NCBI GenBank assembly: GCA_043822065.1
Contig: JBDRCC010000015.1
Location: 1-12,176 of the forward strand
Length of the DNA stretch: 12,176 nt
Reading direction: 5' to 3'
Origin: an archaeon
GTDB taxonomy: Archaea > Undinarchaeota > CAZHTU01 > JBDRCC01
A program made the translations under genes and the position numbers. Shown one piece after another: positions 2,781 through 11,423 of this stretch. Positions within the stretch are counted from its first letter, which is position 1. Every line of letters starts with the position of its first letter. A model generated the notes under the pieces. That model had not been told where the DNA came from, searched no databases, and saw only the letters and a list, made by a program, of their open reading frames with translations.

Positions 2781-3815
2781 ATGGTATTTGAGAGCGTGCT
2801 TAGCCCTGAAACGGCGGAGAACAAGCCATATGACGCATTCATCCTGAGCTTCCTGCTTTCTACAATATCGATAATGCTGGCGTTCATCGTCTTCACCCCG
2901 TACATTGTGGTGAACACGGTGCTTTCAGCCTACACTATTTTTTTCATCGGGATCGTGCTGTTCATCGTCGAGGGGAAGCGGTCCTTTTCAAAGACGCTTT
3001 TCACGCTCACCCTGCTGGCGGTAGTCACGATAATATTCATAACAAACATACAGGGCAAGATACTCGCCCTCGACTATTCAGCATACGCGACATCGGTCTC
3101 GCTTTCGATGATATTCTTCACCTCGCTCGGGCTTGCGCCGCTCATGGTGAGGCTGCTCCAGGTAGAGGAGCGCAGGGACATTGAAGATCTTGAGGATACT
3201 TTCCTTGAGAGGCATTACCACGTGCTCCTGGCTTACGCCGCGCTGTTTGTTGGCGCAGTTTTCGCGTATTCGCTCTGGTTCACGATACTGCCGGAGTCGC
3301 TTGTGGAGACGATATTCAGCGAGCAGCTGAGCACGATAAGGTGGGTGTCCGGGCTGAGGATGGGCCTTACGGCGCAGGTAATCGGCGGGCAGAGCTTTGG
3401 GCTGATACTTAACAACAACCTGAAGATACTCGCAGTCTCGGCGCTGATGTCGTTTGCGCTTGGCTCGGGTGCGATATTCATACTCACCTGGAACGCGTCA
3501 GTGATAGCCGTCGCGATAGGCGACACCGCAAGGACCTTCATCTCGTATTATGCAGGGATGGGGCACTTCGCAGGGGTGGCCGCTTACTTCCATGCCCTCC
3601 CGATTTCGCTTTCGAGGCTGCTTTTCCACGGGAGCATAGAGATACTAGCCTACTTCATTGGAGGGCTCGCGGGCGGAATTCTGTCGGTGGCGGCGATCGC
3701 CCACGAGGGCGCAGCGATATGGCTTGTGATAAAGGATGCGACAAAGCTGCTTGCCTTTTCGGTTTTCCTGATAGTGGTTGCCGCAGCCATTGAGGCGGCG
3801 ATGATAGGGGTATGA
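2781..3815 (+). CDS. Polytopic membrane protein, DUF95/SpoIIM-like family (tentative)
   Basis: There are about 8 predicted TM segments. The motif LILNNNLKILAVSALMSFALGSGAIFILTWNASVIAVAIGD resembles the conserved NxLK...(about 23 aa)...NG/WN signature of stage II sporulation protein M / DUF95 proteins. I recalled this from memory and did not search it. The ATG at 2781 lies 2 nt after the SPFH stop, with AAGGA 5 nt upstream. The upstream in-frame extension from 2730 overlaps the SPFH gene, so I rejected it. Confidence 0.5.
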   Translation: MVFESVLSPETAENKPYDAFILSFLLSTISIMLAFIVFTPYIVVNTVLSAYTIFFIGIVLFIVEGKRSFSKTLFTLTLLAVVTIIFITNIQGKILALDYSAYATSVSLSMIFFTSLGLAPLMVRLLQVEERRDIEDLEDTFLERHYHVLLAYAALFVGAVFAYSLWFTILPESLVETIFSEQLSTIRWVSGLRMGLTAQVIGGQSFGLILNNNLKILAVSALMSFALGSGAIFILTWNASVIAVAIGDTARTFISYYAGMGHFAGVAAYFHALPISLSRLLFHGSIEILAYFIGGLAGGILSVAAIAHEGAAIWLVIKDATKLLAFSVFLIVVAAAIEAAMIGV

Positions 3816-4591
3816 CGAGGATAATAGGCATAACAAGCGGAAAGGGAGGCGTGGGGAAGACGACCACGACTGTGAACCTTGCAACCGCGCTGACCGCGCT
3901 CGACAAGAGCGTGATAATTGTCGACGCGAACCTGACCACCCCGAACATAGGGCTCCACTTGGGGATGCCGCTGTCCGGAGTTACGCTTCACGACGTCCTC
4001 GACGGGGATGCGTTCATAACCGAAGCCATAACGATACACCCCTCGACGGGAGTCAGGGTCGTGCCCGCCGGCCTGAACATAGACAACCTCAACAGGCTCA
4101 ACTACAACATGCTCGGGAGCACCATATTCGACCTGCTCGGATACGCGGACTTCATCCTTGTGGACTGCCCGGCCGGGCTTGACGTCGGCTCCCAGAAGGT
4201 AATACAGGCGTGCGAAGAGGTGCTGATAGTCACGAACCCCGAACTGCCCGCAGTCACGGACGCGCTCAAGGCGAAAAAGTTCGCCGAGACGAACGCGCAT
4301 GTCCTCGGCATAGTCCTGAACAAGGTGCGGCACGTCAAAAGCGAGATGACCGTGTCCGAAATAGAGCAGATTATCGAATCGCCCGTTGCAGTCATCGTGC
4401 CGCACGATGACAGGGTCCAGGAGTCAATATCAAAGAAAGTCCCCCTGCTTGAGCTTGCGCCGAACAGCCCGGCAAGCAAGGAGTGGAGGCGGCTTGCCCG
4501 CCTGATAGAGGGCTTAGAGTTTGAGGATGTCCTGCCGTCCGACATCGGCGGGATGAAACGGTTCTTTGCAAAGCTGTTCAGAAGGGGATAG
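3812..4591 (+). CDS. MinD/ParA-family P-loop ATPase (archaeal MinD-like) with C-terminal amphipathic membrane-targeting helix
   Basis: A deviant Walker A motif GKGGVGKTT sits at the N-terminus (IIGITSGKGGVGKTTTTVNLA). A Walker B-like VDCPAG is present. The C-terminus GGMKRFFAKLFRRG is a short basic amphipathic helix, as in bacterial MinD membrane-targeting sequences. The ATG overlaps the upstream stop (ATGA). Confidence 0.85.
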   Translation: MTRIIGITSGKGGVGKTTTTVNLATALTALDKSVIIVDANLTTPNIGLHLGMPLSGVTLHDVLDGDAFITEAITIHPSTGVRVVPAGLNIDNLNRLNYNMLGSTIFDLLGYADFILVDCPAGLDVGSQKVIQACEEVLIVTNPELPAVTDALKAKKFAETNAHVLGIVLNKVRHVKSEMTVSEIEQIIESPVAVIVPHDDRVQESISKKVPLLELAPNSPASKEWRRLARLIEGLEFEDVLPSDIGGMKRFFAKLFRRG

Positions 4592-6467: not shown

Positions 6468-9143
6468 ATGGCAGACGACAAAGAAAACCCAACGATTGAG
6501 CTGAGGGTAGCCAAGGCAATGCCCGAGGATGCGGAGCGGGGCATAGTCAGGATAGACTCAAAGGCGACGAAGATGGTAGGCGTCGCGGTGGGGGACATAG
6601 TCGAGATAATCGGTGGAAGGACAACGGCCGCGATAGTCGAAAGGGCTTACCCAAGCGATGTTGGCCTTGGCGTCATAAGGATGGACGGGCTCATAAGGAA
6701 GAACGCGGAGACGGGCATAGGGGAAAGTGTCAAGGTCAAGAAAGCGGAAATCTTTGAAGCGAAAAAGGTGGTAATCGCACCGACACAGGAGCTCGGCGGG
6801 CAGCTAGTCGTCCAGGGGATTGAGCGGCTGCTTATCGGACGGCCTTTTGTCAAAGGGGACATACTCGCACCCATACAGAGGCGCGGCGGGGGCATAGACA
6901 TAAACAGCCTCTTCAGCGAGTCGTTCGGGCTGCCCATATTCGGCGGCGGAATTGGCGGAATAAAATTCGTAGTTGCAAGCACCCAGCCGAAGGGCGTGGT
7001 AATAGTCACTGACGTGACTGAGATTGAGGTCAGCCAGCAGGCTGCGGTTATAAAAGATGAGAAGCTCCCTGACGTAACTTACGAGGACATTGGCGGGCTG
7101 AGGGATGAGATAAAGAAAGTCCGCGAGATGATAGAGATACCACTCAAGCACCCAGAGGTATTCGAGAGGCTCGGCGTCGAGCCGCCGAAAGGCGTGCTTT
7201 TGTACGGCCCGCCTGGAACAGGAAAGACGCTTCTTGCGAAGGCGGTTGCAAACGAGACTAATGCCAACTTTATCCTCATAAATGGCCCGGAAATAATGTC
7301 GAAGTTCTACGGCGAGTCGGAGAAGCAGATAAGGGACATATTCGACAATGCGCAGAAGAATGCGCCGAGCATAATATTCATCGATGAGCTGGACTCAATC
7401 GCCCCGAAGAGGGAGGAGGTAACCGGTGAGGTCGAGAGGCGGGTTGTCGCCCAGCTGCTTTCCCTGATGGACGGCCTCCAAGCGAGGGGGCGGGTAATAG
7501 TCATAGGCGCGACGAACAGGCCGGAGGCGCTCGACGTTGCACTCAGGAGACCGGGGAGGTTTGACAGGGAGATAGAGATTGGCGTGCCAGACCGCGACGA
7601 CAGGAAAGAGGTTCTCCAGATACACACGAGGAGGATGCCGCTTGGTTGGGAACAAATCAAGACGTATGTAGCGCCATATCTATTAGAACTGCAAAAAATT
7701 TCGAGAATCGATGATAATACAATACATATCAGCGCTAAGATTGGCATTGACACAGATGGGTCTATGAAAATGCCAGGGGGAGATCTATTCTTTTATGCTA
7801 AAGATTTGAACGAAAAGTATTCTGCCATTGATAAGTATTCTACAACGGTTCCTAAGGAGGGTATATTAGAAGTGGGTAAATCAAAAAAACTCCCCCACGA
7901 GGACTATATTCGATTTAAAAATTCCCAGTTCACAGATGGAGAAACGTATGCAATCGACTATTGGATTAAAGCTAAACGCGGGGCGTCTATTATATTTGGT
8001 TGGGGCACTACATCTAGCTCGACCACGATAAGTATCGGTAATGAGATTGACCTCGACGCCCTTGCGGACATAACCTATGGGTATGTTGGTGCAGATCTGG
8101 CAGCGCTCACGAAAGAAGCCGCGATGGCGACGCTGAGACGGGTTATGGAGAAGGGCGAGTTCAAGCTCGACGAGAAGGGGGGAGCGATACCGCCGGAGAC
8201 CCTGAAGAAGCTAATAGTCGAAAAGAAGGACTTTGACGAAGGAAGGCGGCTTGTCGAGCCGTCAGCCATGAGGGAGGTCCTGTTCAGGAAGCCAACCACT
8301 ACCTGGGATGACATCGGTGGATTGGAAGAGGTCAAGGCCCAGCTCAAGGAGACTGTGGAATGGCCACTCGAGGATCCGGAGTCGTTCAAGAGGCTCGGGA
8401 TAAAGCCGCCGAAGGGCGTCCTGCTGTTCGGGCCGCCGGGGACGGGAAAGACGCTCCTTGCGAAGGCTGTCGCGAACGAAAGCGACGCAAACTTCATTTC
8501 AGTGAAAGGGCCTGAGCTCATCTCAAAGTGGGTAGGCGAGTCCGAGAAGCACGTCAGGCAGATATTCAAGAAGGCGCGGCAGGTTGCGCCCACGATAATA
8601 TTCTTCGACGAGCTGGACTCAATCGCCCCGAAGCGCGGCTCGGAGATTGGGGTTAAGGTCGGAGAGAGGATAGTCGACCAGCTGCTGACAGAGATGGACG
8701 GCATGGAGGAGCTTGAGGGAGTCATAGTCATAGGCGCGACAAACCGCCCGGACATAATAGACCCTGGGCTGCTGAGGCCGGGACGGTTTGACAGGCACAT
8801 ACTGACGCCAGTCCCGGACAAAGCTGGAAGGCTCAAGATATTTGAGGTGCACACCAAGAACATGCCGCTCGACAAGTCAGTCGGCCTGAAAAAGCTCGCG
8901 GATATGACTGACGGGTACGTCGGCGCTGACATTGAGGCGCTGTGCCGCGAGGCTGCGATGAACGCGTTAAGGATTGACAAGAAGGCAAACAAGGTCGACA
9001 TGAACGACTTTGAGGTCGCATTCACCCATGTCAACCCGACGATGACAGAGGGGATGAAGCACAATTATGAGGGCATACTTAAGGACTTCACGACCCGGGC
9101 AAGCATCAAACTAGATAAGGATGTAACCAGGTACTTAGGATAA
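6468..9143 (+). CDS. cdc48: CDC48/VCP/VAT-type double-ring AAA+ ATPase carrying an atypical ~132-aa in-frame insertion in the D1 lid subdomain
   Basis: The N-domain resembles Thermoplasma VAT ([22 protein letters not shown]). D1 has Walker [14 protein letters not shown], Walker B IIFIDELD and second region of homology (SRH) [26 protein letters not shown]2 has a second [21 protein letters not shown] and [21 protein letters not shown]. Between D1 ...IHTRRMPLG and [19 protein letters not shown] there are about 132 extra residues that the equivalent D2 segment ([28 protein letters not shown]) lacks. Confidence 0.9.
7647..8042 (+). other. In-frame, compositionally foreign (AT-rich) insertion within cdc48 D1 (approximately [14 protein letters not shown]...[15 protein letters not shown])
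   Basis: GC drops abruptly. A hand count gives about 32% over 7651-7700 against about 57% over 7611-7650. Codon choice shifts to AT3 codons (aaa, gat, tat, att, tct). There are no in-frame stops. No intein blocks are present: no N-terminal Cys/Ser, no terminal HN. The insert ends in a Ser/Thr-rich linker. The 9-mer ttggttggg occurs at the left junction (7642-7650) and again at 7996-8004. Confidence 0.7.
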
Positions 9144-9616: not shown

Positions 9617-10528
9617 TCAGCATATCGTTACCTCAGGCTTGTCCTTCACAATCACGGTGTGCTCTGACTGCGAAACGACGCCCCTTTCCTTCTCTATTAA
9701 TATTGGGTACGAGTATAAAGCTTTTGCTTGGGTGAGCTGGTTAAGGGCGAGGTACTGGGTTAGCGGAGGGAGCTTAAGCCACCTGCTTGCAAAGGGAAGC
9801 TTATGGTAGCGCTCCTTCGCCAGCTTCAGTATCGTCTTTGCCTCGCGCATCCTGACCGGCTTGTCCGCGAGATAGCTGAATATCATTGACTCCGGTGCGT
9901 CCTTTATCATCCCCACGCCGTCAGTCGCGAACGGCTCGATTGCTATGACCATGCCCTCTTCGAGGACGAAGCTTCCGGACGGAACGTTGGGGATGTTTAC
10001 CCCGCCGTGAACCTTGTACTGGTCTAGGGTGTGGCCGGAGAGGTTCGAGACCGGCTTGAACCCGAAGGATTGTATTGTCTCCTGTATTTTTGCGCCGATG
10101 TCCTTGACGCAGGTTCCCGGAACGCACATCTTTGTCGCCTCGGCAAGCGCCTTTTCTGACGCCTTTATCAGGCCGGCGTGCTTCCCTGAAAAGTCAAGGC
10201 TGAACGCAGTGTCTGCGATGTAGCCATCTATGTGGGCGCCGATGTCGACCTTGAGCAGGTTTTCGCCGACGGTTAGCCTGTCGTTTGTTACAGGAGTGTA
10301 GTGGGCCGCAACCTCGTTGATGCCCAGGTTTATTGGGAAGGCAATCCCGGCGCCAAGGTCGCGAATCATCTTCTCGCCGTCGTTTGCTATGTCAAGCAGC
10401 CGTGAGTCTGCGGTAATCGTCTTCTTCAGGTGGTCGACAACCTTCTTTGCAATCCTGCCGGCGTCCCTATACTTCGTAAAGTTGGTCGGTTCGCCTTGCT
10501 GTCTCTTTCCAGTCGAATTTTCCTGCAT
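9617..10528 (-). CDS. map: Methionine aminopeptidase, type 2 (archaeal MetAP)
   Basis: The sequence aligns to archaeal MAP2. It has a YRDAGRIAKKV start region, FPINLGINEVAAHYTP (His in the conserved AHYTP motif), VDIGAHIDGYIADTA (metal-binding Asp pair), SGHTLDQYKVHGG, EPFATDG, and a C-terminal VSQSEHTVIV. An SD-like AGGAAAGG lies about 8 nt upstream. Confidence 0.9.
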   Translation of the reverse strand: MQENSTGKRQQGEPTNFTKYRDAGRIAKKVVDHLKKTITADSRLLDIANDGEKMIRDLGAGIAFPINLGINEVAAHYTPVTNDRLTVGENLLKVDIGAHIDGYIADTAFSLDFSGKHAGLIKASEKALAEATKMCVPGTCVKDIGAKIQETIQSFGFKPVSNLSGHTLDQYKVHGGVNIPNVPSGSFVLEEGMVIAIEPFATDGVGMIKDAPESMIFSYLADKPVRMREAKTILKLAKERYHKLPFASRWLKLPPLTQYLALNQLTQAKALYSYPILIEKERGVVSQSEHTVIVKDKPEVTIC

Positions 10529-11423
10529 ATTGCACGCCTTTCCTTGACAATTGCCCCTTTAGCTTGGGATCCTTTAGTAGTTTTTCTATCTGCGAGCGGA
10601 ACTCCTGCGGGGAGTCTGCAAACAATGCCCTTCCATCAGCAAGCTCCTTCGCCGCGCCCCTGGGGCGGCAGATTACGGGCAGGCCGCACGCCATCGCCTC
10701 TAAAATCGTGAGCCCGAAGCCCTCCCATTCCGAGGTCGAGATGAGGCAGTCTGCAGATTTCATATAGCTGTAAACCTGTTCAGGCGGAAGGGCTCCAAGC
10801 TTTATGCCGCCGAGCCGGCTTGCAAGCGGACCGCCCCCTATTATGTAGAAGTTGCAGTCCGGTGAGATTATATCCTGCAGGAAGCTGACCTTTTCCCTGA
10901 CAAGATTACCGACAAAGAGGACCGCCGGCATGCGTATCCGTATCGGCTTTGCCTTTCGGATTTCCGCTGCGTCGATGCCGTTCGGGATTACTTTGGCATG
11001 TAGCCCCCATTTTTTGAGCTCGTCCGCCAGGAACTGGCTGACCGCAATCACTTTTGCGCGCCTGCAGACTATTTTTTTGAGCTGGTTGAGCAGGCTGGCT
11101 TTCATGACGTCTGAGCCGTGGACTGTCAAAACGAGCTTTTTTCCTGTGAAGGCTGAGAGAAGCATTCCCAGAAAGCCGGCGGGGAGGATGAAATGGGCGT
11201 GTATTATGTCCGGCTTTTCCTTCCGGATGCAGTAAAGCCCGTAAAAAAAGCCGGCGATGGCGAATGACAGAGCGCGCAGGACTGGAATGTTTATTATGGG
11301 AACTGTATAGTCGCCGTCGGAGGCGTATGTAAAGGTAATAACATGGTTTTTTGAATATTTCTTAAGGTAGTGGACATGCCTTGCTATTCCCCCTGACAGC
11401 TTTCCTATTAGAAGAACTTTCAT
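10467..11423 (-). CDS. Glycosyltransferase family 4 (GT-B fold, retaining GT1-like)
   Basis: The C-terminal domain carries the E-x7-E signature EGFGLTILEAMACGLPVI. The N-terminal Rossmann-like domain reads MKVLLIGKLSGGIARHVHYL. The start overlaps the upstream ORF's stop (ATGA). The 3' end overlaps the map start by 62 nt. Confidence 0.85.
   Translation of the reverse strand: MKVLLIGKLSGGIARHVHYLKKYSKNHVITFTYASDGDYTVPIINIPVLRALSFAIAGFFYGLYCIRKEKPDIIHAHFILPAGFLGMLLSAFTGKKLVLTVHGSDVMKASLLNQLKKIVCRRAKVIAVSQFLADELKKWGLHAKVIPNGIDAAEIRKAKPIRIRMPAVLFVGNLVREKVSFLQDIISPDCNFYIIGGGPLASRLGGIKLGALPPEQVYSYMKSADCLISTSEWEGFGLTILEAMACGLPVICRPRGAAKELADGRALFADSPQEFRSQIEKLLKDPKLKGQLSRKGVQYAGKFDWKETARRTDQLYEV

Follow-up and report, generated by a model that had tools for sequence, protein, structure and literature searches.

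Cdc48/VAT is a core motor of proteostasis, and its choice of substrates is normally set by separate cofactors that bind its N-domain. The lids of AAA+ rings are known to carry additional modules, as in the M-domain of ClpB, the insertion that follows helix alpha7 in D1 of Rix7, and the insertion in D2 of p97 (PMC6355894; we use the naming of the lid helices alpha5, alpha6 and alpha7 given there). The insertions in D1 of Rix7/NVL and D2 of p97 and the M-domain of ClpB/Hsp104 are all helical and conserved family-wide, are located after alpha7 or within the lid, and have demonstrated regulatory or structural roles. Here we report on the cdc48/VAT gene of contig JBDRCC010000015.1 (the whole stretch of 12,176 nucleotides (nt) that was analysed, hereafter the window), from a metagenome-assembled genome (MAG) of an Undinarchaeota-related DPANN archaeon. 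The D1 lid encoded by this gene carries an insert which, unlike those in the described systems, is a predicted beta-domain located after alpha5 in one genome. We consider it likely that this insert represents the recent in-frame capture of a foreign domain by a permissive D1 lid loop near the N-D1 interface, and that the domain is translated together with Cdc48.

The translated open reading frame (ORF) of 891 amino acids (aa) is identical in sequence to NCBI MFH1786591.1 ("MAG: CDC48 family AAA ATPase [archaeon]"). It matches the curated family model TIGR01243 (CDC48) across aa 10-870 with 1047 bits, against a cut-off of 802.65, and the Pfam domains found in the protein are CDC48_N (PF02359), CDC48_2 (PF02933), two copies of AAA (PF00004) and two copies of AAA_lid_3 (PF17862). 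Its relatives are mostly about 730-780 aa long among the 120 best listed. In alignments with 17 and 73 homologues, the invariant columns of D1 (G247-T254, D306/E307, N350 and R361/R364) and of D2 (G655-T662, D714/E715, N759 and R770/R773) are retained, and the Walker, sensor, arginine-finger and pore-region invariant columns are all kept in the 891-aa protein. Judged by its sequence, the ORF is a full CDC48/VAT ATPase with an intact ATPase core. The features of the gene and its insert, given in window coordinates with the evidence for each, are as follows.

6468-9143, forward strand: entire cdc48/VAT gene, encoding 891 aa and containing the insert in frame (ORF list and translation, family model, NCBI identity, synteny)
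6498-7040, forward strand: N-domain, comprising CDC48_N (aa 11-94) and CDC48_2 (aa 118-191) (Pfam)
7194-7583, forward strand: D1 AAA core, aa 243-372, with Walker A GPPGTGKT, Walker B DELD and arginine fingers R361/R364 (Pfam, alignments)
7593-7643, forward strand: D1 lid helix alpha5, which contains R389 and ends in HTRRMPL (AlphaFold2 (AF2) helix 376-387)
7642-7650, forward strand: TTGGTTGGG, a 9-nt direct repeat, first of its two copies, located at the left junction (L-G-W) (repeat search)
7644-8042, forward strand: inserted segment, aa 393-525, 133 codons (alignment, composition, frame test, fold prediction)
7674-8018, forward strand: part of the insert that is homologous to aa 40-153 of protein P0121, described below (BLASTP, phmmer)
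7996-8004, forward strand: second copy of TTGGTTGGG, within the conserved F-G-W-G motif of the domain (repeat search)
8043-8252, forward strand: rest of the D1 lid, alpha6-alpha8, aa 526-595 (AF2 helices 529-535, 541-561, 576-581 and 586-595; alignment)
8862-8903, forward strand: alpha5-alpha6 loop of D2, the equivalent position, without insertion (translation, alignment)

The insert is bounded by IHTRRMPL, which ends at 7643, and EIDLDALAD, which starts at 8043, and it makes the protein a net 130 aa longer here than its closest homologue, in which the corresponding sequence is MPL-NKD-VDL. In the AF2 model it lies between D1 lid helices alpha5 (aa 376-387) and alpha6 (aa 529-535). The insert is coding, is read in the frame of its host gene, and is compositionally foreign. 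Stop codons are absent from the host frame but number 3-15 in every one of the remaining five, and only a fraction of 5e-5 of shuffled sequences were free of stops. The overall GC content of the insert is 0.39, and windows of 120 nt have values of 0.35-0.40 inside it and 0.52-0.67 in its flanks; it forms the sole GC dip of the contig, every other 300-nt window of which is at or above 0.45. At third codon positions, the GC content (GC3) is 0.37-0.38 in the insert as opposed to 0.70 in the rest of the gene and 0.61-0.77 in the other ten ORFs. Compared with 444 sliding windows of 130 codons from all other coding sequences of the contig (minimum 0.585, mean 0.713, standard deviation 0.046), the insert has a GC3 z-score of -7.3. 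These results bear out several claims of a first-pass annotation of the window, which had described the cdc48 ORF as intact at 891 aa, had recorded low GC and a shift in codon usage at 7647-8042 (W394 to N525, right to within one codon), and had noted that the equivalent D2 loop has no insertion. The sharp compositional boundary that it described is found at the left edge, where GC3 drops from 0.7 to 0.2 over about 10 codons; at the right edge the change is more gradual.

The exact 9-nt sequence TTGGTTGGG is present in two copies in the window, against 0.11 expected, and these are 354 nt (118 codons) apart. Recombination between the copies would remove 118 codons in frame. The pair could have arisen by chance, or could be microhomology that was used at integration. 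We considered and rejected a target-site duplication, as the second copy sits 38 nt inside the right boundary, in the conserved GWG motif of the domain; because this copy encodes the domain's own FGWG motif, the pair is not a flanking duplication.

A large in-frame segment in an archaeal gene might instead be removed before the protein matures, whether as an intein, as a bulge-helix-bulge (BHB) intron, as a group I/II intron or through translational bypass between the TTGGTTGGG copies, to leave a product of about 760 aa. Three DPANN Cdc48 proteins of 1198-1290 aa (P0028, P0030 and P0070) carry true inteins with Intein_splicing (PF14890) and LAGLIDADG_3 (PF14528) domains. Such inteins are likewise large in-frame foreign insertions in the same gene family, and the direct repeat would permit an in-frame skip of 354 nt. 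However, Cdc48 inteins contain Hint and LAGLIDADG domains and remove themselves by splicing, while the window insert has neither these domains nor the terminal residues. No Hint/intein Pfam family matched the insert even at E<=1, and the insert starts with G393-W394 and ends with G524-N525 followed by E526, rather than starting with C/S/T and ending in H-N followed by C/S/T. When pairs of junctions were scored for a BHB motif (two 3-nt bulges with a 4-bp helix between them, pairing both junctions), the best pairing was 13 of 16, at the bottom of the range of 13-16 obtained from random site pairs. No Rfam family, including group I and II introns, matched 7644-8042 at E<=1, and the RNA fold z-score of the insert region was -0.5. 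An intron would be free to contain stops in the host frame, but this segment has none. Known translational bypasses span tens of nucleotides. We also found no terminal inverted repeats of the insertion sequence or miniature inverted-repeat transposable element (MITE) type at the ends of the insert, where the 9-nt sequence is the only direct repeat. The intein, BHB-intron, Rfam-family and MITE readings were thus each tested and each ruled out, in agreement with the earlier statement that the insert has no intein hallmarks and is not spliced out, and we regard removal of the segment by any route as extremely improbable.

We searched the insert exhaustively with phmmer against 1.84 billion (1.84e9) representative proteins and obtained three matches, of which P0121 is the single true homologue (E 1e-17). 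The other two, P0122 and P0123, are low-complexity repeat proteins and were rejected as homologues. In a pairwise BLASTP comparison with P0121 (E 5e-25), 42 of 115 positions are identical (37%) over residues 11-125 of the 133-residue insert, and the motifs GGDL-FY and GWGT are common to both. P0121 is a membrane-anchored protein of 983 aa that begins with a signal peptide, and the shared domain follows immediately at residues 38-154; the remainder is rich in N-x-S/T motifs and has hydrophobic (transmembrane) segments at its C-terminus. The N-terminal ectodomain of P0121 is homologous to nearly the whole window insert, and the two form an unnamed family of two members. They differ in setting, in that the P0121 domain is extracytoplasmic and N-terminal, after a signal peptide, whereas the window domain is internal to a cytosolic ATPase and has no signal peptide.

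The P0121 gene is found on locus L002, a 28-kb NCBI contig (JACGGR010001194.1, GCA_041694085.1) with a GC content of 0.34. One block of this contig (1-18091) consists of tightly packed, co-directional ORFans, including several small transmembrane proteins and a P-loop ATPase of 341 aa. Besides P0121, the block also encodes giant proteins of 973 and 1609 aa; all three have glycoprotein-like sequence, and the largest has a Chlorovirus glycoprotein repeat (33 bits). No tRNA was detected on L002. From its gene content, the block appears to be an archaeal virus or mobile element of a kind not yet characterised. This assignment is an inference from gene content because comparisons with PHROGs, IMG/VR and GenBank phages gave no match: the L002 contig had no matches in PHROGs, scans of IMG/VR with the insert alignment, P0121 and the L002 ATPase returned no confirmed relative, and 50,697 phage records contained no tblastn match to either the insert or the L002 ATPase.

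Further searches with the insert were negative. There was no match in Pfam, NCBIfam, PHROGs or by sequence profile in PDB; a scan of species-representative genomes with the insert alignment returned nothing; and word-index protein searches with the insert and the two-sequence alignment also returned nothing, which is weak evidence given that they missed the query's own protein as well. No further copies of the domain were detected by profile search in the window, in loci L001, L002 and L004, or in 28 other loop inserts. One metagenome match, L003, was rejected as spurious; it is a pattern-forced match of 33 aa in a short ORF that is overlapped by a longer ORF on the opposite strand.

Modelled from its single sequence with AF2, the insert has nine beta-strands and no helix, with a mean predicted local distance difference test (pLDDT) value of 63 and a predicted template-modelling (pTM) score of 0.60. 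Structurally, this model comes nearest to Ig-like domains of pilins or adhesins, and its matches include no ConA-like fold. A Foldseek search of the model against BFVD returned nothing at E<=0.001, with TM-scores of at most 0.5. With moderate confidence, we take the insert to be an all-beta, Ig-like or pilin-like domain. The beta-sandwich of Laminin-G/ConA type that had been guessed at earlier is thus matched in its all-beta character, but the specific assignment finds no Pfam or NCBIfam match, and the folds nearest to this moderate-confidence model are those of Ig-like pilins and adhesins. The Ser/Thr-rich tail, which had been read as a flexible linker, belongs to the domain, because its TTISI stretch is the last predicted beta-strand; the GWGT-S sequence is also conserved with the sole homologue.

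In the closest homologue of the window protein the site is empty. This homologue, P0002, is a 760-aa protein from Candidatus Undinarchaeota that shares 84% identity with the window protein and has no frameshifts in the flanks. Its locus, L001, has the same downstream gene order as the window, namely a 94-aa ORF, an M24 peptidase of 303 aa and a GT4 glycosyltransferase of 318 aa, and the window gene is therefore the chromosomal orthologue. The relatives P0002-P0007 (69-84% identity) all have the canonical loop of 13-14 residues, and the same insert was found in none of the other Cdc48 relatives among 8000 scored proteins. As the site is empty in a relative with 84% identity, the insertion would post-date the split from that relative, and together with a GC3 that has not adjusted to that of the host, this points to a recent event. 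These observations, together with the presence of the insert homologue in a foreign, low-GC context resembling a virus or mobile element, support the recent horizontal acquisition that the first-pass annotation had proposed.

The two orthologous loci differ in composition despite the 84% protein identity, with an overall GC content of 54% in the window versus 45% in L001 and a cdc48 GC3 of 0.70 versus 0.40; the insert, at 0.37, would look native in the genome of the L001 relative. In both loci there is a 62-nt overlap between the ORFs for the M24 peptidase and the GT4 glycosyltransferase (9617-10528 and 10467-11423, both on the reverse strand, in the window; 3265-4176 and 4115-5071 in L001), and either this overlap is conserved or the real start of the peptidase is further downstream.

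The position of the insert is shared with many other DPANN archaea. Inserts of 68 to 195 additional residues were found at the D1 alpha5-alpha6 loop in 28 of 80 species-representative DPANN Cdc48 genes, in a sample of genomes whose retrieval was biased toward full-length matches. In a set of 74 sampled relatives, 62 have the canonical spacing of 13-14 residues, two have 10 additional residues and nine have 61 to 198 additional residues; VAT of Thermoplasma has five. The lineages that carry inserts include Woesearchaeota, Nanoarchaeota and Pacearchaeota. Examples are P0081, P0096 and P0108 (each 837 aa), P0035 (936 aa), P0117 (955 aa), P0021, P0031, P0033 and P0104, with further cases at L033, L040, L026, L014, L007 and L006 among loci L006-L085. 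These other loop inserts are 70-200 aa long, K/E-rich and helical, and belong to several mutually unrelated families. Because so many DPANN Cdc48s carry unrelated inserts here, the loop can be regarded as structurally permissive. We found no published description of DPANN Cdc48 loop inserts in the literature. The helical inserts resemble an add-on of the ClpB M-domain type. In a separate case, P0008 (850 aa), about 96 additional residues follow alpha7 in the D2 lid (near window position 8960), at the known post-alpha7 site of p97/Rix7.

The recurrence of inserts at this loop raises the possibility that the window insert is an old, endogenous loop expansion similar to the helical inserts of Woesearchaeota and Nanoarchaeota, with a low GC content that reflects amino-acid composition or local selection. 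The window insert shares with the other DPANN loop inserts an identical insertion point after HT[RK]xMP[LI] and an intact AAA core, the same loop is occupied in more than a third of the species-representative genomes, and some inserts there have a GC3 as much as 0.22 below that of the rest of the gene. They differ in that the window insert is beta-rich rather than K/E-rich and helical, is unique, has a foreign GC3 and has a bona fide homologue outside Cdc48, whereas the helical inserts are nearer to the GC3 of their hosts. The profile of the window insert matched none of the other DPANN loop inserts, and the closest relatives, P0002-P0007, retain the canonical loop. GC3 is largely independent of amino-acid content. 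Among 27 control inserts, the difference in GC3 from the host gene ranges from -0.22 to +0.21 (mean -0.03, standard deviation 0.10), and the window insert, at -0.33, is the lowest and lies beyond all of them. We consider an old endogenous expansion to be very unlikely. An insertion into this essential gene had been called unusual in the first-pass annotation; its position is in fact ordinary, being a recurrent hotspot in DPANN Cdc48, but the content and origin of the window insert are not.

The structural setting of the loop can be related to that of human p97. When the D1 sequence with the insert deleted was aligned with PDB chains, R389 of the window protein corresponded to N387 of p97, and the insert starts four residues later. 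In p97, N387 is a residue of the interface between the N-terminal domain (NTD) and D1, where it is paired with R155, and its mutation shifts the up/down equilibrium of the N-domain (PMC5102582). The D1 insertion of Rix7 would clash with the down position of the p97 N-domain (PMC6355894). By this alignment, the window insert would be situated on the outer rim of D1, beside the N-domain. We rejected a coiled-coil M-domain of the ClpB/Hsp104 type as an identity for the insert, which is also located in the D1 lid but is predicted to be all-beta and occupies another position, after alpha5. In the full-length AF2 model, the N-domain, D1 and D2 are well predicted (most blocks have pLDDT values of 80-93), while residues 408-525 fall below 50.

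Archaea often have more than one Cdc48 paralogue. The insertion could therefore be real but disruptive, marking a decaying or compromised cdc48 that is tolerated through a second paralogue or under weak selection in a small DPANN population. The insert adjoins the N-D1 interface, where single substitutions are sufficient to perturb p97 (PMC5102582). The condition of the gene speaks against such decay, as the ORF is complete and the invariant columns listed above are preserved, the gene occupies the same syntenic position as its L001 orthologue, and its flanks are 84% identical and free of frameshifts. In other lineages, the same loop also accommodates inserts that reach about 200 aa. A disruptive insertion appears unlikely to us, if not negligibly so.

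MAG assemblies do contain chimeras, and the contig could be an assembly or binning artefact in which a low-GC segment of about 390 nt from another organism was joined into a cdc48 contig. The protein was observed once, on one contig, and the compositional switch is abrupt. An artefact would, however, require a second junction that rejoins the gene at the very codon position where the first had left it, around a segment of exactly 133 codons that is in frame and stop-free (5e-5 by chance) and that spans one whole protein domain from edge to edge. Neither junction has shared sequence of k-mer length, the longest repeat being 9 nt. It is improbable that a chimera would have two junctions, stay in frame and cover exactly one domain, and we consider an artefact of this kind to be decidedly unlikely.

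Several observations weigh against reading the insert as a recently captured foreign domain. Both the protein and the contig that carries it have been seen once, in one MAG (cluster size 1, on the 12,176-nt contig). There is one homologue only, and the proposed origin in a virus or mobile element accordingly depends on which genes one uncharacterised contig carries, for which PHROGs and IMG/VR gave no match. The GC3 of P0121 is about 0.14, compared with 0.37 in the insert; P0121 is therefore related to the donor without being the donor itself. Some helical inserts also have a GC3 up to 0.22 below that of their hosts, and the window value, although the most extreme, is only about 3 standard deviations away. 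The insert model is itself of moderate quality, and the low pLDDT of the region in the full-length model means that its orientation on the ring is not fixed by the model.

Taking these points into account, we still favour recent capture as the likely origin of the insert. A complete all-beta domain of about 125 aa, probably an Ig-like sandwich, would have been copied in frame into the chromosomal cdc48 of an Undinarchaeota-related DPANN archaeon, with a virus or mobile element as the putative donor. Illegitimate recombination is the likely route, and is proposed because there are no signatures of a transposon or an intron. The segment would be translated within Cdc48 and not removed, in which case the hexamer may display six extra beta-sandwich domains at the periphery of the D1 ring. 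Most likely, the insert would be a tolerated peripheral module. It is plausible that it could add a protein-binding surface, or that it could make the coplanar 'down' position of the N-domain sterically less favourable. The adaptor or decoy role put forward in the first-pass annotation is speculative.

The remaining genes of the window are housekeeping genes and include those for PheRS beta, a MinD/ParA-like ATPase and an SPFH protein. A 364-aa ORF at 783-1877 on the forward strand has thrombospondin type 3 repeats (PF02412, E 4e-11) and probably encodes a calcium-binding surface protein; it has no relation to the insert.

Insertions in the lids of AAA+ rings are already known. What sets this case apart is the likely capture of a foreign beta-domain, and it also draws attention to a variable loop in DPANN Cdc48 that seems little studied. 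If this interpretation holds up, an essential AAA+ unfoldase has been caught in the act of capturing a foreign domain while the empty site still exists in a close relative, which amounts to a natural experiment in how new domains enter essential machines, and the case would show how much the D1 rim tolerates. Until reads bear out the allele and the protein has been studied, its practical value is modest. A more speculative reading, to which we assign a low probability, is that the D1 alpha5-alpha6 loop serves as an evolvable 'adaptor socket' in DPANN Cdc48 that takes up different modules in different lineages, and to which the window lineage has added a receptor-like Ig-fold from a surface glycoprotein of a virus or mobile element. 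Were this true, the insert would be a built-in recognition domain that recruits viral or partner proteins for unfolding or mimics them, and would constitute a host-virus or host-symbiont interface rather than a passive passenger. To our knowledge, few Cdc48 cofactors are known in DPANN archaea, and the variable loop of archaeal Cdc48 may tune the dynamics of the N-domain or the binding of partners.

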